From the IMG/VR virus record IMGVR_UViG_3300037478_000449, positions 1 to 64,000 of that record: a stretch of DNA of 64,000 bases; one strand, written 5' to 3'. How positions within the stretch are numbered: the stretch's first letter is position 1; each line of letters opens with the position of its first letter. The notes beneath the pieces are model-generated. The model made no database searches. It had not been told where the DNA came from and was given only the letters and a program-made list of their open reading frames with translations. Positions 49,342 through 58,110 of the stretch are shown here, piece by piece. Source of the stretch: a virus. The position numbers and the translations under genes were made by a program.

Positions 49342-50427
49342 TCAAGGGGTGCACCCTTGCCACGGGATCGCGGGTGCCGGGGTGTGCGAGGGCGGGGTCA
49401 GCGCTCGCCGCATCAACGCCAGTTGCCGGCCCCAGGTGGCGCCGGTCCGCTGCGCCACCAGCCATCGTGCCTGCAAGCGGGCCGTCTCACGCTCAGCGGC
49501 CAGCCGCCGGTGGACCTCCCCCTCCAGCCAGCCCTGCCCGTTGCCGGCCTCGTGCTGGCCGTGCCGCCAGCGGGCCAGATACAGAGCGGCCCACCCGCGT
49601 ACGGTCTCCCACCGGGCACCGGCCGCGCCGCGTACGGCCCGGCCCAGCCGGGCCATGCCGAGCCCGGCGAGCACCAGCCCGGCGAGCAGCGGCAGCGGCA
49701 GCACCCCCACGGCGCAGGTGGCCAGTGCCCAGCCGGCGGTGGCCAGCCGGGCGGTGACCGTAGGCCGGGTGTCGGCCCGACCCGCCGCAGTCTGGGCCAG
49801 CGCCTGAGCGGCCAGCCGCAGCAGCGGCCGGGGCATCACCCCCAGCTCCCACGCCGCCGGCTGGGTCGCCGGTCCCCACTCGTAGCGGGCTCCGAGCACC
49901 GCCGCGTACCGGGCCGGCTCCGGGGCGGGTGGCGGTGCGGGTGGGGTGGGGCCGTCCGGCGGACCGTCGTCACCGTCCGGACCGTCACCGTCCGGCCCGT
50001 CGTCGTCGGTCGGGAGAACGTCGTATGCGCCATCGTCGGGAGTTCGAGGCCCTCCCGCTGGCCTAATCAGGGTCACAGCGTCGGCCCGGATCTGGTCCAG
50101 GTCACCCAACGCCCGGTCCAGCAGCGGCGACCGGCGGACCGTAGCATCCGCGGCCGGCACAGCGGGCATCACCGCCGTAGCCCGCGGCTCAACCATCTCC
50201 GGCACTGCCGGTGGTGGCCACAGGCTGGCCGGTCCGACCGGCACCCTACCCACCACCGCCGGCCGGGCAGGTGGGGTGAACTCGTCCAACCGCACCCGGC
50301 CGCCCGGCTGGCGGCCGGTCCGGGCGGCCGCCCAGCCAGCGGCCCAGCACACCACCGACACCAGCAGCACCGCTCCGGCGAACACCAGCCACGGCGCGGT
50401 CACCGGCTGCGTCACAAACTCCCACAC
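49342..50427 (-). CDS. Membrane protein with Pro/Asp-rich linker
   Basis: N-terminal TM, DGPDGD repeats, second hydrophobic hairpin. Confidence 0.55.
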   Translation of the reverse strand: MWEFVTQPVTAPWLVFAGAVLLVSVVCWAAGWAAARTGRQPGGRVRLDEFTPPARPAVVGRVPVGPASLWPPPAVPEMVEPRATAVMPAVPAADATVRRSPLLDRALGDLDQIRADAVTLIRPAGGPRTPDDGAYDVLPTDDDGPDGDGPDGDDGPPDGPTPPAPPPAPEPARYAAVLGARYEWGPATQPAAWELGVMPRPLLRLAAQALAQTAAGRADTRPTVTARLATAGWALATCAVGVLPLPLLAGLVLAGLGMARLGRAVRGAAGARWETVRGWAALYLARWRHGQHEAGNGQGWLEGEVHRRLAAERETARLQARWLVAQRTGATWGRQLALMRRALTPPSHTPAPAIPWQGCTP

Positions 50428-50709: not shown

Positions 50710-51384
50710 TCACCGGTCCCACCGGCCCACCCGCAGCTCGGCCACAAACCCGGCCCAGTCGGCAGGCTCGGCAGGCGACACCACCCCCGGCCGAGTGCTG
50801 GACTCGCTCTGGCGGGACCTCGCGCGATGGCGCGCCCGAGCTACACCCGCGCCCCGCCGGACGTTCACTGAACCCGTGACTGGTTCCAGGTGGTCAGGGT
50901 TAACGCAGGCACGGTTGCGGCAGACGTGATCGAGTTCAAGGTCGGCGGGTATCGCGCCCACCAAGTGCTGCCAGCTCCACCGGTGCGCCAGTGCGGCCGA
51001 GACGTTCGGGTCGTTGCTGTAGCGGTACGAGCCGTAGCCGCCATCTGTGCGTGCGCCGGTCCAGACCCAGCAGTCAGCGACATCGACCCGCGCCCAGAAA
51101 CGCTCCTCGGCCGGTTGCCCTGCCAGGTGCAGACGGACGTTCGCGTCAGCATCCCCACGCCGCTTCCATCGCTGGTAGTGCATGTTGCAGTAAGTCCTCG
51201 CGTACTGCGGCCGGTCGCAAGGGTCCACGGTGCACGGGGCTGGCGGCCGTCGGGACGATTCGCGGATAGTCCAGACAACAGTCGGGTCCCCGTTCTTGCG
51301 CCAGCGTGAGTAGTGGGTGATGCACAAGCCCCGCGCCCGGGAAGGCTGGAGGCAGGCAGCCTCCGATGGAACACGGCGCATCAC
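50710..51384 (-). CDS. HNH endonuclease (HNH_3-like), 5' end frameshifted
   Basis: CWVWTG...GYG...AHRWSW...LDHVCRNRACVNPDHLEPVT..N. Confidence 0.85.
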   Translation of the reverse strand: MMRRVPSEAACLQPSRARGLCITHYSRWRKNGDPTVVWTIRESSRRPPAPCTVDPCDRPQYARTYCNMHYQRWKRRGDADANVRLHLAGQPAEERFWARVDVADCWVWTGARTDGGYGSYRYSNDPNVSAALAHRWSWQHLVGAIPADLELDHVCRNRACVNPDHLEPVTGSVNVRRGAGVARARHRARSRQSESSTRPGVVSPAEPADWAGFVAELRVGRWDR

Positions 51385-51526: not shown

Positions 51527-52450
51527 CTACTCGGCCAGTCCGCCCAGCAGCGCGTTGCGGCGACGCCGCTGCCACCACATCGGCAGCACCACCGCGGCGG
51601 TCCCCAGCGCCACCAGCCCGCCGCCGACCGCCGCAGCGGTCTGCACCGGGGAGCCGGTCACCGGCAGCGACTCGCTACCGTCTGCCGAACCGCCGCCACC
51701 CGGAGCGCCAGGCTCACCCGGGTCACCCGGTTCGCCGGGGCAGCCGTTAACCGGGTTCACAACCAGCTCCCACTGCGTGGTCGCGTCGCCCGGGAAGGCG
51801 TAGCCCGGTGCCGGGCTCGCCGTCACCGGGTAGGTGCCAGGTGGAACCGGCCCGGACGTGGCGTCGTAGACCACCCCGTCCTGGGTCGGGATCACCAGCT
51901 CGCCCGCGTCCGTTCCGGTGGCGCACTCGAACTGGGCAACGCTCGGCTCCTCCGGGGTGACACAGCCGGCCACCCGGAACGCCTTCCACTGCCCCTCGCC
52001 GATGAACGGGTTGCCGTCCAGCTGCTCCGGCCCGAACACGGTCCACTCGAACCCGCCAACCTCCGCCCCGTAGGCGTTGATCGCCACCTTGAACGCGTCG
52101 TTGGTCAGCCCGCCGTCGGTGGCCGGATGCCCGACCCACAACGGGTAGTCCAAGTCCCGCTCGCCGCCGCCGAACAGACGCCACTGCACCACCGTCGGCG
52201 CGTCGAACGGGCCGACCTCCACCGACGCGCCCAGCGACTCCGACACCGCCGTCTGCCCGTTGGCGGACGCGACGATGAACGCCTCGACCTCGGTGCTGAT
52301 CTTCACCGGCCCGCACGGTGCGTACGTCCGGTCGATCTGCACTGGCTGCCGGACCATCTCCTGCGCCTGCGCCGGGCTGCCGCCGAGCAGCAGCCCGGTT
52401 CCCGCCAGTGCCAGCACCGCTACGGCACCGGCCAGTCTCTTGTAGGTCAC
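51527..52450 (-). CDS. Secreted LPxTG sortase-anchored surface protein
   Basis: Signal peptide ...PAQAQ; LPVTG + TM helix + RRRR tail. Confidence 0.8.
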   Translation of the reverse strand: MTYKRLAGAVAVLALAGTGLLLGGSPAQAQEMVRQPVQIDRTYAPCGPVKISTEVEAFIVASANGQTAVSESLGASVEVGPFDAPTVVQWRLFGGGERDLDYPLWVGHPATDGGLTNDAFKVAINAYGAEVGGFEWTVFGPEQLDGNPFIGEGQWKAFRVAGCVTPEEPSVAQFECATGTDAGELVIPTQDGVVYDATSGPVPPGTYPVTASPAPGYAFPGDATTQWELVVNPVNGCPGEPGDPGEPGAPGGGGSADGSESLPVTGSPVQTAAAVGGGLVALGTAAVVLPMWWQRRRRNALLGGLAE

Positions 52451-52466
52451 TACCTCATCCCTTCGT

Positions 52467-52492
52467 CCCCGCCGGCGCGGTGCCGGCGGAAG
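52467..52492 (-). terminator. GC-rich hairpin closing tract 5
   Basis: CCGCCGGC-ACCGC-GCCGGCGG immediately 3' of the repeat tract. Confidence 0.5.
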
Positions 52493-52577
52493 TTTCCGCG
52501 CCTTGCCAAGCCACGCCCGACCTGGCCACACATCGGCTCGCCCGGCCACGCCTGGCCGTACCGCGCCATGCAGCGCA
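52493..52577 (-). ncRNA. GGY-NN pentamer tract 5 (17 units), putative guide RNA
   Basis: TGCGC TGCAT GGCGC GGTAC GGCCA GGCGT GGCCG GGCGA GCCGA TGTGT GGCCA GGTCG GGCGT GGCTT GGCAA GGCGC GGAAA. Starts 1 nt after the ParB stop. Confidence 0.7.
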
Positions 52578-52578
52578 T

Positions 52579-53256
52579 CTAGGCGGCCGCCTCAAGCTCG
52601 CCGAACCGGCCGGTCAGCAGCGCCTGGACTTCCCGCAGCGCGGTAACGGTCGCCTCGTCAGTCCAGTCGCACACGTCACCTTCGATCGCCTGAATGATCT
52701 GCTCGGCGTGGAAACGCACTGACCAGCCCGAGGAACGGCGGTTGGCGCGTTCCTGCCGTTCGGTCAGCCGCTGGCCGGCGAGGTGCCGCAGCGGGCGCTT
52801 GATCGGCAGCGGCTTCCCGTCGTGGTCGTAGGCGGTCTTCGCGGCCTTTAGCTTCCCGAGCACGTCCACGTCGACCGCGAGCGCGCCTGCGATCCGGTCC
52901 ACGTCCAAGCCAAGCTCGGTGCCGATCTGCACGCAGCGGGACCGGTCGAACGGGTTCAGCTTCACGCCATGGCGGGCGTTGCGCCGCATGGCGTCCTCGA
53001 ACAGTTCCGCGTCCGACTCGTAGTCGACCAGCTCCACGGCGATGACCGCCTCGGTGTCACGCCGCAGGTACGCCGCAACCCGGTGGAAGCCGTCCACCAC
53101 CCGAAGCGTGGACCGCTCAGCCACCACCGGCGGGGGTTCCTCCCCGGCGTCTAGCGAGTTGGCGATCCCCCTGACGTTCACGTCGTCCAGGTGGTGCCTG
53201 GGGTACAGCTTGTAGTCCAGAACCAGCTTGGCCGCTGGGATCTGCTTCGTTCTCAC
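52579..53256 (-). CDS. ParB/Srx N-terminal-domain protein
   Basis: YPR...PPVV...VVDGFHRVAA...NARHG..L. Confidence 0.85.
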   Translation of the reverse strand: MRTKQIPAAKLVLDYKLYPRHHLDDVNVRGIANSLDAGEEPPPVVAERSTLRVVDGFHRVAAYLRRDTEAVIAVELVDYESDAELFEDAMRRNARHGVKLNPFDRSRCVQIGTELGLDVDRIAGALAVDVDVLGKLKAAKTAYDHDGKPLPIKRPLRHLAGQRLTERQERANRRSSGWSVRFHAEQIIQAIEGDVCDWTDEATVTALREVQALLTGRFGELEAAA

Positions 53257-53350
53257 GTGCTCACGCCTTCCACTTGTAGGTGTCCTTGCCCTGCCACACC
53301 CCGCCGTGCGACGCCGTGGGTCGCCCGGCCAAGCCCCGCCATGTCTTGCG

Positions 53351-53393
53351 TGGGCGCCGAGGGCTCGAACCTCGGGTGCCTGCCGGTCGCCCA
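53351..53393 (-). ncRNA. tRNA-like mini-structure 3
   Basis: TGGGCG...CCGAGG-TTCGAGC-CCTCGG-CGCCCA: acceptor-like stem plus T-arm, no anticodon arm. Confidence 0.7.
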
Positions 53394-53475
53394 AACCCTT
53401 GCGCTGCCCCGCGTTGCCCGGCCGGGCCTCGCCATGCCCAGCAGCGCCTCGCATCGCCGCGACGTGCCGCGAACG

Positions 53476-53518
53476 TGAGCGCCGCAGGAGTCGAACCTGC
53501 GATACGACCGTCCGCCCG
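53476..53518 (-). ncRNA. tRNA-like mini-structure 2
   Basis: GGGCG-GACGGTCGTAT-CGCAGG-TTCGACT-CCTGCG-G-CGCTC. Confidence 0.7.
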
Positions 53519-53605
53519 GTTTGCCCTCGCCTTGCCACGCCGTGCCAGGCCCTGCGCAGCCGAGCCGAGCCTCGCCCCGCACAGCCCTGCCGCGCCTGGG
53601 TTCGG

Positions 53606-53649
53606 CGAGCGCCAGGGGAGTCGAACCCCCGGTTACGACCATCCGCTCA
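53606..53649 (-). ncRNA. tRNA-like mini-structure 1
   Basis: TGAGCG-GATGGTCGTAA-CCGGGGG-TTCGACT-CCCCTGG-CGCTCG. Confidence 0.7.
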
Positions 53650-53759
53650 ACCATCGGCCTACTCCTCGCCTCGCCAAACCCCGCCCAGCCATGCCGCACC
53701 TGGCGTCGCCGCACCGGGCTAGGCCGGGCCGCGCCGGGCCAAGACTCGTTTGGTGTGCC

Positions 53760-54296
53760 TCATGGCAGGACCTTGAACCGTCCGAAGGGGCCAGACTTCT
53801 CCGGTCGGTAATCACCGACACCAACGGTCCGGCCGCCGATCTCCAGCAGCTCCCGAACCTGCTTCTCCGGTATGAAGTCCGTGTCCACCTCAAACCTCAC
53901 CGTCGCCGCCCACTCGGGCACCTTCGCCCGGCTCCGGGTCACCCCGTTTCGCTGGACGACCGCCCGCCGGGTGTCGATCTCGTATTCCTTGACCGGCTCA
54001 CCGTTGAGGATCAGCAGCGTCTGCTCATCGGCTGCGAACACCGCACCCTTGATGACCGACGTAGCAGCCGTCTTGCCGATCCGCCGGCCCTTCGCCGCCG
54101 ACACCAGGCAGCCACGGAACGCCTCCGACGGCAGGAACAGCTGCCCCGTAGCGCTGCGGTACACCGACCGCTCAGCCTCAACCTCGGCCGTTGGGATGTT
54201 CTTCCTCCCGAGCTTGTCCGACGGTGCCTGCATCCCAGCCGGGTTGTTCATCAGGACCGGCTTGATGCTCTGAATCTCGATCTCGATCAGTTCCAC
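53760..54296 (-). CDS. Stand-alone Cas7/RAMP-like protein
   Basis: N-terminal beta strand + PVLM, LFLPSEAFRGCL (cf. RAMP IPGSSxKG), C-terminal Gly-rich loop GVGDYRPEKSGPFGRFKV. Strong RBS. Confidence 0.7.
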   Translation of the reverse strand: MELIEIEIQSIKPVLMNNPAGMQAPSDKLGRKNIPTAEVEAERSVYRSATGQLFLPSEAFRGCLVSAAKGRRIGKTAATSVIKGAVFAADEQTLLILNGEPVKEYEIDTRRAVVQRNGVTRSRAKVPEWAATVRFEVDTDFIPEKQVRELLEIGGRTVGVGDYRPEKSGPFGRFKVLP

Positions 54297-54729: not shown

Positions 54730-57228
54730 TCACCGGGACACCTCGCCCAGGTCGAACAGGGTCGGCATCGACAGATTGGCCTCGGTCGCCTGGAGATACT
54801 TCACGCCATCCAGGAAGTAGCCCGGATTCAGCTCCACGGCTCGACCCTGCCGACCAAGCCGCAGCGCACGAACTGGCACCGTGAACAGCCCACCGAACGG
54901 GTCGAAGACCATCTCGCCCTCGTTGCTGTACCGGCGGATCAGCCGGTCAACGATGTCGAACTGCAACGGGCAGACGTGAAGCGCCTGTGCCCGGCGGGAC
55001 TGCTCGGTGTTTAGGGTCAGCATCCGGTTCACGTCGTGCCACACGTCCGGGTGGTGCGACCCGGGAGCGAGCGCCATGAACGTCGCCGGCAGCGCCCCCC
55101 GGCCTTCTAGCGCCTCGCCGATGCGGACGTGCGCCTCGTAGTCGTACACCTGCCGCAGGGTCTGCTCGGTGAACAGCCGGGACATCTGATCTGGCGGCAA
55201 CGCGGCCAGCTCGTCCGGGGTCAGGTACCGCTCGCCCGAGGAGCGCCAGAACGCATGCGCGTCTACCTGCCACCGGGAGCGGGTGTAGTCGTCCTTGGAC
55301 TTGGCAACCGGCACGTCTGCGTAGCCGCGGGTCCGGTCAGTCTGCGGCTTGTGGAACAGCAGGACGTACTCCGGGGAGCCGGCTCCCATCTTCGTCGCGT
55401 CCTTGCACTGCTCCGACCAGCCGAGCCGGTACGTCTGGTTGTTCTCCCGCACCACGTCCGTGACGACGGTGATCATGCCGAGGTAGTCGAAGCCGTGCCG
55501 GATGCCGTGGGCGATCGCCTCGGCGTGGAAGGGGGAGACGGTAGGGACTCCGGCGCCGGTGACGTTGCCGAACAGGATGCGGTCCTTGACGTGGCAGCAG
55601 TAGATGCGCCCGGGCCGTAGCACTCTCAGCAGCTCCGGCGTCAGGAAGTCCATCTGCGCCCAGAAGTGGCCGTTGTCGTCGGTGTGGCCGAAGTCCTCGT
55701 ACTGCGGGGTGTACTCGTAGTGGTTGGCGAACGGGATCGACGTGACGATCAGGTCGACCGACTCAGGCGCCATCGCCTTGGTTTCCAGTACGCAATCGTT
55801 GTTGGCGACCAGCCAACCCTTTCCGGCGGCCTCGATCCGGTCGACGCCGATCGAGCGGGTCAACGCCTGCGTGATGCCCTGCTGGTCAAGGCCGAACTCG
55901 CGAATGACCTCGGTCATGGTGCCGGTCAGCTCCTCGTGCTGTGCCCACTTGCGCCGCAGCGTGCGGACGACTTCGCGCTCCGATTCGGCGTGGATGATGT
56001 CGATGCGCACCCGCTTTGTTTGCAGGAAGCGGTGGATGCGGTGGACCGCCTGAATGAAGTCGTTGAACGAGAACGTGATCCCGACGAAGACCGCCCGGTG
56101 GCAGTGCCGCTGAAAGTTGCACCCGGAGCCGGACAGTTCCGGCTTCGTGGCTAGTAGCCGAAACCGCCCGTCGGAGAAGTCGATGATCCGCTGCTCCCGG
56201 ATGTCCAGGTCCAGCGACCCGTACACCTCCACAGCCTCCGGCAGCGCCCGCTTGATCGCCCGACGCTCATCCTCCAGGTCGTGCCACAGGATGAAGTGGT
56301 CACCCGGGGATGCGGCTACGATCTCAGCCGCCATCGCCACCCGCGCGTCCAGCGTGGACCGTTTCTCCCGAGCCGCGTCGGTCACACCCAGCGCGGCGCC
56401 CCGGAACAAGTGCCCCTGTCCGTCGCGGTCAACCGGTGCGTCTGAGTGGTCCACCGGAATCTCGTGATACATGACCTCGATGTCCGGCAGGTCGTATCCG
56501 GTGTCGTCGTATCCGAGGTCGCTCGGCTTCTGGAGGAACACGGCCCACGTGTTGAGCCACAGCCAGAACTCCCGCTGCTTGTGCGGGTAGAGCGTGAGGT
56601 GGTTGGCCTTGGTGGAGTCCCGCTGGAAGAACCGGGTCAGCGCCTGACCGGTGTCCATGATCCCGAGATAGCCGGCGTAGTGGATCAGCTCTTTATGCCG
56701 GTTCGGGCTTGGCGTGGCGGTGGCCAGGAACCGGTACTTAACCTCGTCGAACAGGGTCAGAAACGTCTGGTACGTCTTGGACCCGAACGAACGTAGCACC
56801 GACGCCTCGTCCAGGCTCACCGCGTCGAACAGGTTGGGGTCTAGCCGGCCGTCCCGCACCGACTCGTAGTTGGTCAGGTACAGACCCGGCCCGTCGACCT
56901 CAGCGGTCCAGCGGACGAACGACACGCCCATGTCGACCAGCGGGGCGTCCCTGGCGAACTCCTGCCGTACGCCGAGCGGGCAGACGATCAGCGCACGCCC
57001 GCCAGTCCTTGCAAGGATCAGCCGCATGATCTCCAGCTGTATGACGCTCTTGCCGAGCCCGAACGCGGCGAAGACAGCACGCCGGCCGCCGCGCACGGCC
57101 CAGCGCACGATCGCCCGCTGGTGCAGCATCAAGGCCGGGTGAACGTCAGCCTCGTTGACCTCGAATCCGTACGTCTGGCTGAAGTCGACCTTGGCGGCCA
57201 GGAAATCGGTGTAGCTGTTCGCGCTCAC
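54730..57228 (-). CDS. SNF2-like helicase fused to a beta-class N4/N6 DNA methyltransferase
   Basis: FGLGKS, LDEAS, ATATPSPN, QAVHRIHRF; then DLIVTSIPF and VFDPFGG. Confidence 0.9.
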   Translation of the reverse strand: MSANSYTDFLAAKVDFSQTYGFEVNEADVHPALMLHQRAIVRWAVRGGRRAVFAAFGLGKSVIQLEIMRLILARTGGRALIVCPLGVRQEFARDAPLVDMGVSFVRWTAEVDGPGLYLTNYESVRDGRLDPNLFDAVSLDEASVLRSFGSKTYQTFLTLFDEVKYRFLATATPSPNRHKELIHYAGYLGIMDTGQALTRFFQRDSTKANHLTLYPHKQREFWLWLNTWAVFLQKPSDLGYDDTGYDLPDIEVMYHEIPVDHSDAPVDRDGQGHLFRGAALGVTDAAREKRSTLDARVAMAAEIVAASPGDHFILWHDLEDERRAIKRALPEAVEVYGSLDLDIREQRIIDFSDGRFRLLATKPELSGSGCNFQRHCHRAVFVGITFSFNDFIQAVHRIHRFLQTKRVRIDIIHAESEREVVRTLRRKWAQHEELTGTMTEVIREFGLDQQGITQALTRSIGVDRIEAAGKGWLVANNDCVLETKAMAPESVDLIVTSIPFANHYEYTPQYEDFGHTDDNGHFWAQMDFLTPELLRVLRPGRIYCCHVKDRILFGNVTGAGVPTVSPFHAEAIAHGIRHGFDYLGMITVVTDVVRENNQTYRLGWSEQCKDATKMGAGSPEYVLLFHKPQTDRTRGYADVPVAKSKDDYTRSRWQVDAHAFWRSSGERYLTPDELAALPPDQMSRLFTEQTLRQVYDYEAHVRIGEALEGRGALPATFMALAPGSHHPDVWHDVNRMLTLNTEQSRRAQALHVCPLQFDIVDRLIRRYSNEGEMVFDPFGGLFTVPVRALRLGRQGRAVELNPGYFLDGVKYLQATEANLSMPTLFDLGEVSR

Positions 57229-58110
57229 CGGGGCACCCCGCCCGGGTCTGTCCCGCCGGGTTCCCGGCCCAGCAGCCGGTCCAGCCACACCACGTCGTCC
57301 ACGGCCTCCACCGCCAGCGGCTCGCCGAGCACGTCGACCAGGTGGGCGGCGGCCCGCTTGCCGGATGCCTCATCCGGGTAGGCCAGGTAGTGCCGCACCG
57401 GCCCAGCAGCGGGCAGGGTGTGCACGTCCCAAACGAGGCTCACCGGACCCGCCCCCTCTGCCGCCGACGCAGCTCCTGCTCCCAGTCGTAGGTGGTGTTC
57501 CGGTCGGCCAGCCGTGCCGCGTCGATGGCCTGCCGCAGCCGGGTGTCCTGGTCGCGGCGCCGCTGCCGGGCGGCCCGGCGGGGGTGGGGCAGGTGCAGCC
57601 TCACCGGACCCGCCTCCTGCCGTGGTAGATGGCCACACCGGTTACCAGCGCCCCGGCTGGGATCACCGCGGCGGTGGGGGAGTCCGGGCCTGGGGTGGTG
57701 GCCACGTGGACCAGCCGGGTGAGCCGGTCCGGTGTGCAGCAGCCCGGGTCACCGGCCGGTGCCAGACACACCCGGCACGGCGGGCTGGGCTGCCGGCACG
57801 GGCTGCAGGTGTCGGCGGTGGTCCACTCTCCGCAGGTGCACAGCCGCACCCTGGTCGCCGTCGCCGCGGTCACGACCCGGCTCCGATCCCGGCGACCAGG
57901 CGCCGCAGCTTCCCCCGCGCCTTGCCCCGGTGCTCCACGACATAGACCAGGTGACCGGAGCCGGCCAACTTGACCTCCCACCGCTTGTCGGCGACGCGGC
58001 GGCGGGCGAACGCCACACACCGGCCGGTCTCCCAGTGACGGACGTAGATCGCCCGGTCCCACTCCACCCACCGGTACTCAGCGGCGGGCTCGGTCCCGGC
58101 CCGGTCCAGC

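Follow-up and report, generated by a model that had tools for sequence, protein, structure and literature searches.

Positions 52467–54296 of a 64,000-nucleotide stretch of viral DNA (the window; nucleotides 1–64,000 of IMG/VR record IMGVR_UViG_3300037478_000449, a 100,218-bp virus rated complete by CheckV) most probably hold a VIPR (Viral Interference Programmable Repeat) system of an actinomycete phage of ~ 100 kb. In this system the guides are separated by transfer RNA (tRNA)-like minihelices, here termed mini-tRNAs, and accompanied by a ParB-like partner; we put the probability of this reading at roughly 0.85. The vipr gene, five guide tracts, three mini-tRNAs and the ParB-like gene all lie on the minus strand. 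A first-pass annotation of the DNA, made from the letters alone, had proposed an RNA-guided system here, had mentioned the name VIPR and had left novelty to a literature check. The name is real and stems from bioRxiv preprints of 2026 (10.64898/2026.04.26.720920, 10.64898/2026.04.26.720927, 10.64898/2026.10.15.759431); the system as such is therefore not new. The features that differ from the published text are the mini-tRNA punctuation, which is widespread, and the ParB-fold accessory gene.

In the systems of Escherichia phage SUSP1 and Pseudomonas fulva, Vipr protomers polymerize on an RNA of alternating GGY and NN and present the NN to DNA (10.64898/2026.04.26.720920, 10.64898/2026.04.26.720927, 10.64898/2026.10.15.759431). 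The guide RNAs, termed vrRNAs, comprise 9–16 YNNGG repeats and a structured 3′ tail, and RNA–protein co-purification, DNA recognition with a 1-nt skip (xNN) and programmable repression were demonstrated (10.64898/2026.04.26.720920). The targets belong to rival phages or to satellites; the systems fall into seven types, with accessory genes vap1–6, and their arrays are simple, staggered, hammerhead-interspersed or single (10.64898/2026.04.26.720920). Filament structures and growth of the R-loop from the 3′ end were reported in 10.64898/2026.04.26.720927, and competition between VIPR and a satellite in 10.64898/2026.10.15.759431.

The vipr gene (53760..54296, minus strand) encodes a 178-residue Cas7-like RAMP with the G-loop motif GVGDYRPE..GPFGRF. 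Its GTG start codon abuts the stop codon of the upstream open reading frame (ORF), and its G + C content at third codon positions (GC3) is 0.84. A single-sequence phmmer search against solved structures returned as best match the PDB entry 36pp, "SUSP1 Vipr protein", with an E value of 0.0027; the G-loop GVGDYRPEKSGPFGRF aligns with GVGDWRPR..FGRF of 36pp. A profile built from 53 Vipr homologues matched the same entry over its full length (positions 1–182 versus 1–190) with an E value of 7.1e-22. The AlphaFold2 model has a predicted local distance difference test score (pLDDT) of 93.5 and a predicted TM-score (pTM) of 0.87, and the top PDB folds identified by Foldseek are Csm3, Cmr and type VII Cas7 subunits (E ~ 5e-6, TM ~ 0.5, 9–15% amino acid sequence identity). 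Because of the 36pp profile match and the Csm3/Cas7-like fold of the model, which contains a single RNA recognition motif (RRM), the protein is assigned, on sequence and predicted structure, to the Vipr family of RAMPs, in line with the RAMP/Cas7 hallmarks that had drawn attention to the gene. Residues Gly155, Gly159, Asp162, Arg164 and Gly172 of the G-loop GVGDYRP..GPFGRF are invariant in the homologue alignment, and an arginine-rich β-hairpin spanning residues 106–126 may constitute the thumb. A search of 5.8 billion protein sequences yielded 110 Vipr relatives, nearly all of them metagenomic and without names, the closest two at 87% and 82% identity. Homologues with 24–31% identity occur in cultured phages of Gordonia, Mycobacterium, Pseudomonas and the Felixounavirus group. 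The PHROGs assignment is phrog_4652, a functionally unannotated PHROG, and a Pfam search gave no match.

Four guide tracts follow vipr on the same strand, each in a single fixed 5-nt phase, and a fifth follows the next gene, as the first-pass annotation had described. The vrRNA1 tract (53661..53740) consists of 16 in-phase units, including 13 GGY, and terminates in GGAGT; the vrRNA2 tract (53522..53596) has 15 units, 12 GGY, and ends in GGGCA. The vrRNA3 tract (53394..53473) comprises 16 units, of which nine are GGY and the others NGY or NNY, with GGGTT as its terminal unit. The vrRNA4 tract (53281..53350; 14 units, nine GGY, terminal GGACA) extends into GGAAGG, the ribosome-binding site of the gene that follows, and lacks a 3′ mini-tRNA. 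The vrRNA5 tract (52493..52577; 17 units, 12 GGY, terminal GGAAA) lies after the ParB-like gene. The range of 14–17 units thus agrees with the earlier description, and the core runs from first to last GGY unit span 11–15 units. All five tracts close on a GGA or GGG unit, likewise as described, and this is the sole feature common to their 3′ ends; a mini-tRNA follows three of the guides and none follows the other two, for comparison with the structured 3′ tail of published vrRNAs.

The earlier count of 55 units beginning GGC or GGT stands, while the earlier total of 77 gives way, with revised boundaries, to 73 non-terminal and five terminal units. Unit position 3 is C or T in all 73 non-terminal units against a pyrimidine background of 0.49 on this strand, and position 2 is G in 68 of the 73. 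The entropies of positions 4 and 5 are 1.84 and 1.99 bits, respectively, and the NN positions are therefore nearly free; both the pyrimidine rule and the variability had been noted at first sight. When the window was scanned for at least seven GGY units among 12 in phase, only the five tracts and a site at 49694-49600 reached the threshold, every one of them on the minus strand. The tracts score 8–10, compared with a maximum of 6 on the plus strand and 5–8 in block shuffles, and a scan of the full 100-kb genome disclosed no further tract exceeding five GGY. Possible ORFs of 153 and 319 residues span this region of high-GC DNA, and the periodicity might then simply reflect base composition or a coding sequence, for example the 153-residue ORF through the array. 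A 5-nt phase is incompatible with codon structure, however, the observed scores lie beyond those of the shuffles, the pyrimidine at position 3 is without exception, and the architecture recurs in unrelated sequence at many loci; a by-product is thus extremely improbable.

The 146 loci encoding Vipr relatives that were fetched (7 from genomes, 59 from IMG/VR and 80 from metagenomes) show that this arrangement is conserved. Among the first 66 loci, GGY-NN tracts adjoin the vipr homologue on the same strand in 55 and lie on the opposite strand in one; adjacency in homologues was the check that the first-pass annotation had proposed for itself. The architecture is matched in the close relatives L068-L072 and L008, and the gene order vipr, tracts, ParB-like gene is found again in L008, L070, L071, L072 and L077. 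The first-pass proposal that each protomer grips a GGY and presents the NN, so that guide information is interleaved with scaffold, is supported by the Vipr homology and by the mechanism published for SUSP1 and P. fulva. A Cas1 search and a search for a CRISPR-like tandem repeat array both came back empty, which bears out that much of the first-pass claim that cas genes and CRISPR are absent, other cas families not having been searched individually. Membership in CRISPR–Cas, which entails a repeat-spacer array and a cas1/cas2 module, was rejected since neither Cas1 nor an array was found.

Between tracts 1 and 2, 2 and 3, and 3 and 4 lie three tRNA-like minihelices that the first-pass annotation did not mention. 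Their common layout is an acceptor-like stem of 5–6 bp, a connector of 10–12 nt, a T stem of 6–7 bp with a TTCGAnY loop, the 3′ acceptor strand and a discriminator base. Mini-tRNA 1 (53606..53649, minus strand) has a 5–6 bp acceptor-like stem, an 11-nt connector containing GG, a 7-bp T stem, the loop TTCGACT and discriminator G. Mini-tRNA 2 (53477..53517, minus strand) pairs GGGCG with CGCTC, has a 7-bp T stem with the same loop TTCGACT, and has its discriminator A at 53476, whereas the stem of mini-tRNA 3 (53351..53393, minus strand) is TGGGCG/CGCCCA, with a 6-bp T stem and the loop TTCGAGC. A T arm with the loop consensus is stacked on an acceptor stem (5 + 6–7 bp), and the stack covaries strongly. 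Complete tRNAs were considered and rejected: there is no D arm, no anticodon arm and no 7-bp acceptor stem, and the connector measures only 9–12 nt. The three separators are tRNA-like but are not tRNAs. ARAGORN called no tRNA anywhere in the window, and Rfam at E ≤ 1 assigned the elements to no family. No parent is evident among the 36 tRNAs of the phage, similarity being confined to the T loop.

The same element occurs between guides in L021 and L077, and the five founding copies (three from this locus and one from each of these two) show compensatory changes in nine of 12 base pairs. A covariance model built from the five copies found no further copy in the first 147 loci. A search with a DNA pattern that joins a T loop to downstream GGY-NN units gave 71 IMG/VR loci versus ~ 8 expected by a rough estimate; a minihelix adjoins the tract in 58 of these, a Vipr homologue lies nearby in 52, and only 11 pattern matches fall within genuine tRNAs. 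At E ≤ 0.01 the covariance model retrieved 146 mini-tRNA elements from ~ 55 viral loci. In the resulting alignment (A5) 93.4% of cells are paired compared with 63.8% in shuffles, and 381 cells carry double changes compared with 93, counts that are inflated because the alignment was fitted to the covariance model. The covariation score is 0.762, a value that none of 500 shuffles attained, versus 0.173 for shuffled alignments, and slid controls do not exceed 0.12. The consensus retains the T-loop positions G53, T54, T55, C56, R57, A58 and C61, with GTTCRANYC nearly invariant; the connector GG is likewise nearly invariant (118–119 of 122 copies) and the discriminator is mostly A. Most arrays alternate tract, mini-tRNA and tract, and in about two thirds no mini-tRNA follows the final tract.

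RNase P, RNase Z and the CCA-adding enzyme all have an acceptor/T stack of 12 bp as their minimal substrate. A GG at the connector position can mimic G18-G19 of the D loop by docking on the T loop, thus forming the elbow that RNase P reads. By this analogy, the mini-tRNAs are probably cutting signals for RNase P and RNase Z. Other IMG/VR contigs have same-strand GGY-NN tracts of 10–17 units within 4–30 nt downstream of complete tRNA genes (L197:2500-4231, L184:2533-11322, L208:4498-10141, L231:11060-12030 and L195:1502-1660). The tRNA genes concerned, often for tRNA-Arg, tRNA-Leu or tRNA-Val, belong to phage tRNA clusters; the fetched stretches of these contigs showed no Vipr homologue, and the tracts may be solo guides that use tRNA processing. 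Taken together, the covariation, the conserved T loop and GG, the alternating arrays and the full tRNAs in the same position favor punctuation as the role of the mini-tRNAs, with cutting by tRNA-processing enzymes as its presumed means.

A competing view, which would leave the rest of the VIPR interpretation unchanged, holds that the mini-tRNAs are structured 3′ tails, counterparts of the SUSP1 pseudoknot, that are retained on the mature vrRNA and cap the Vipr filament or nucleate it. Published vrRNAs do carry a conserved structured 3′ tail that caps the filament (10.64898/2026.04.26.720920, 10.64898/2026.04.26.720927), and every mini-tRNA is located 3′ of a tract. Because guides 4 and 5 have no 3′ mini-tRNA and about one third of arrays in other loci end in one, a role as a 3′ cap retains some probability. 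It is nonetheless the less likely of the two by a wide measure: guides 4 and 5, the last guides of L021 and L077 and about two thirds of arrays do without the element, close relatives have unrelated short tails, and full tRNAs take the same position in other contigs. Moreover, the conserved 12-bp stack, T loop, GG elbow and discriminator A are the features that tRNA-processing enzymes generally read. The short tails were observed in the closest fetched relatives (L069:1690-2300 and L070:1755-2100), in which direct repeats stand between the guides instead of mini-tRNAs; the example in L070, GGGCACGTCCCCGTCCTCATTCTTTC, is present in three copies. The type of separator therefore changes quickly within one Vipr/ParB subclade.

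The gene between tracts 4 and 5 (52579..53256, minus strand, with a GTG start at 53256) encodes a 225-residue ParB-like protein with a ParB N-terminal domain, a helical DNA-binding part and the motif DGFHR. It matches phrog_1033, "ParB-like partition protein", with an E value of 1.6e-9. The AlphaFold2 model has a pLDDT of 95.9, and Foldseek matched it to pNOB8 ParB-N, Noc, ParB and KorB over ~ 140–155 residues. In Pfam the protein itself has no match and ParB_N was matched weakly by three of 39 family members; a profile search of the PDB with the family gave no sequence match, so that a fold search was needed. The 48 relatives of the protein have identities that parallel those of Vipr. The gene adjoins vipr in 23 of the 146 loci, usually 35–370 nt downstream with the guides in the gap. 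Wherever the Vipr of a fetched locus reaches 39% identity to the present one, the gene is there as well, save in two contigs that end less than 265 nt from vipr; it is mostly absent from loci with Vipr below 39% identity. Since its linkage to vipr tracks Vipr identity, the gene, whose ParB fold is predicted by modeling, is taken to be the conserved accessory gene of this Vipr subclade. It has no similarity to the gene for a 146-residue protein that lies after vipr in wV8, a phage of the SUSP1 type. KorB acts as a transcriptional co-repressor, and one might guess at a KorB-like clamp action for the protein. An inverted repeat inside the gene (52761-52819, CAGCCGCTG..CAGCGGCT) gave a weak, sub-threshold Rfam match to a microRNA family, almost certainly by chance.

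A ParB-fold gene within the array invites the proposal that the tracts act as DNA, namely as a centromere-like array of binding sites for the ParB-like protein in partition or replication of the phage. The strand of the tracts is tied to that of vipr (55 loci versus one), however, and in ~ 120 loci tracts adjoin vipr although a ParB-like gene is absent. Transcripts of homologous tracts exist and co-purify with Vipr (10.64898/2026.04.26.720920), and compensatory changes in the tRNA-like folds are sensible only for RNA. A function of the tracts as DNA sites is accordingly very improbable.

In the proposed VIPR mechanism, a minus-strand operon would be transcribed through vipr, the four guide tracts, the ParB-like gene and the fifth tract. 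Host RNase P would act at the 5′ side and RNase Z at the 3′ side of the mini-tRNAs, with their 12-bp acceptor/T-arm stack, canonical T loop and D-loop-like GG, and these cuts would split the transcript into separate vrRNAs. Vipr protomers would then polymerize along each vrRNA, gripping the GGY and exposing the NN pairs, and the filament would read double-stranded DNA, skipping a base in each unit (xNN), and block transcription of a rival mobile element. The ribonucleoprotein, the 1-nt-skip code and the silencing, including the role against competitors that the first-pass annotation had suggested, are ascribed to this locus by analogy with the published homologues. The ParB-like protein would be an accessory DNA-binding partner, a candidate of the vap type, which may strengthen or spread the silencing. 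Evenly balanced, in our estimate, is the broader proposal that VIPR arrays of many phages are matured by the host tRNA machinery, with mini-tRNAs or, in some phages, genuine tRNA genes as punctuation. Such arrays might share an origin or an expression logic with phage tRNA clusters, and in this subclade a filament-recruited ParB-like protein might spread silencing along the target DNA. The text of the four VIPR-related preprints (10.64898/2026.04.26.720920, 10.64898/2026.04.26.720927, 10.64898/2026.10.15.759431 and 10.64898/2026.10.21.760802) contains none of these ideas.

Several observations count against the interpretation as a whole. The ParB-like protein lacks the classical GERRxR CTP motif and has DGFHR. 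The folding energies of single mini-tRNAs are no better than those of shuffles (z of 0.4 to −1.0), and to this are added the inflation of the pair counts in the fitted alignment, the two guides here that have no 3′ mini-tRNA and the third of arrays elsewhere that end in one. Finally, none of the five guides had a credible natural target in the phage's own genome, IMG/VR, GTDB genomes, the hosts of related prophages or the fetched loci. Because the phage community is sparsely sampled and exact 10-unit sub-patterns are strict, the null result is not evidence against function.

The targets were sought on both strands with the published rule in which each GGY becomes one wildcard (xNN, 1-nt skip). 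In the phage's own genome, at skips of 0–3 and compared with shuffled-guide controls, the only excess was the guides' own DNA at skip 3; none of the five guides thus has a self-target, consistent with 10.64898/2026.04.26.720920. The 3′-proximal 10-unit sub-patterns of all five guides had no match in IMG/VR, and guides 1 and 3 had none in GTDB genomes. Four 20/20 sub-pattern matches of guide 5 in unrelated metagenome-assembled genomes of GTDB were rejected, the remainder of the guide being at chance level; one of the four is in a sigma-factor gene. No target above controls was found in all fetched loci, and guide 1 gave no credible target in 301 sampled Actinomycetes genomes. Full guides with up to three mismatches were also compared with five actinomycete genomes that carry related prophages; the only match, 19/22 positions of guide 4 in a Nonomuraea ABC-permease gene, was judged to be chance. 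In an uncultured bacterium (L236:2510-2538, the region before ..ERERQVIELRYGL..), a gene of the sigma-70 family has an exact match to the ten 3′ units of guide 5, which spell R-E/D-E/D-V-Q/H-R-V-L/F-N/K-A, and the other four units are at chance level. This match is taken as chance, but a sigma-factor gene of a rival actinophage is still a plausible kind of target.

The sixth site that passed the window scan is a GGY-NN run at 49620-49664 on the minus strand, 2.8 kb downstream of guide 5, with eight GGY in nine units (nine of 12 in the wider scan). It is located within an ORF of 361 residues (50427..49342) with a coding-like GC3 of 0.85–0.93 and the peptide ..GLGMARLGRAVRGAAG.., and it has neither a GGA or GGG end nor a tail. 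The run could be a chance product of a Gly/Ala/Leu-rich gene or an embedded solo guide. At the downstream end of the locus, a GC-rich hairpin was read from the sequence at 52469..52489 (minus strand; 8-bp stem CCGCCGGC/GCCGGCGG, 5-nt loop, no U run). The locus may terminate or have its 3′ end at this hairpin, which a scan for consensus terminators did not call.

Upstream of vipr, 54730-57288 (minus strand) encodes an 852-residue SNF2-type helicase fused to a DNA methyltransferase (phrog_16, phrog_67). Downstream, an HNH endonuclease is encoded at 50710-51384 and a secreted protein at 51527-52450 (both minus strand); the latter carries an LPVTG sortase-like motif and has no family match. The 36 tRNA genes of the phage form a single minus-strand cluster outside the window (G000:C1:65633-69562). 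CCA is encoded at the end of the ARAGORN span in only ten of the 36, the other 26 being without it, and no GGY-NN tract lies inside the cluster. The major capsid protein has no close cultured relative and is 65–71% identical to prophage proteins of Glycomyces, Micromonospora and Nonomuraea; because of this sequence similarity, the host is probably a filamentous actinomycete.

Two cultured actinophages carry related loci without mini-tRNAs. In Gordonia phage Pipp (L159:3117-3332) a vipr homologue is accompanied by GGY-NN tracts that lie beneath an annotated "hypothetical protein" coding sequence, gp43, which is probably a misannotated guide array. In Mycobacterium phage Mattes (L161:1595-1796) a vipr homologue occurs with four back-to-back, staggered-looking tracts upstream of gp52. 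Both phages would be convenient laboratory systems. The main value of the present locus is confirmation and extension, as it provides a complete actinophage VIPR locus and a ParB-fold partner for one Vipr subclade. The mini-tRNAs offer a testable answer to the question of how multi-guide VIPR transcripts are cut, and they are nature's equivalent of the tRNA-guide arrays engineered for multiplex genome editing. Should RNase P and RNase Z prove to be the cutting enzymes, compact VIPR arrays with several guides could function in any host, and no dedicated nuclease would be required.

Among known systems, the locus is closest to the type II VIPR of SUSP1 and that of the Pseudomonas fulva prophage, with which it shares a homologous Vipr, same-strand GGY/NN guides of 11–16 units adjoining the gene, and the format of a minimal viral locus with no cas genes and one accessory gene. 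The identity to the Felixounavirus (SUSP1-type) Vipr is, however, only ~ 24%, and the locus departs from the SUSP1 type in its ParB-fold accessory gene, the lack of a common pseudoknot tail, the mini-tRNAs after three guides and the actinomycete host. The terms tRNA, tRNA-like and ParB are absent from the text, as distinct from the figures and supplements, of 10.64898/2026.04.26.720920, 10.64898/2026.04.26.720927, 10.64898/2026.10.15.759431 and 10.64898/2026.10.21.760802. The hammerhead-interspersed arrays of type I/V VIPR (10.64898/2026.04.26.720920, legend of fig. S19) resemble the present array in placing a structured RNA module that is able to free the guides between them, but that module is a self-cleaving ribozyme whereas the one proposed here is a tRNA mimic in need of host enzymes. 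Rfam detected no hammerhead at the gathering threshold in the whole window and none at E ≤ 1 in 52400-53800.

Vipr shares with Csm3/Cmr4 of type III systems and with type VII Cas7 the RRM/RAMP fold, the glycine-rich loop and polymerization with a fixed period along a guide RNA. It differs from them in sequence (~ 10–15% identity), in a period of 5 rather than 6 nt, in guide information that is interleaved with the scaffold, and in that no CRISPR array or Cas1 was found. The ParB-like protein has the N-terminal domain and helical DNA-binding domain fold of the CTP-dependent clamps ParB, Noc and KorB, whereas DGFHR replaces GERRxR, as in ParB-like nuclease/sulfiredoxin relatives. Small RNAs next to tRNA or tRNA-like units are set free by RNase P and RNase Z in engineered polycistronic tRNA-gRNA arrays and in the tRNA-miRNA (TMER) genes of murine gammaherpesvirus 68; in contrast to both, the elements of the present locus are natural phage minihelices of acceptor stem and T arm, with a short GG connector, set within a VIPR guide array.

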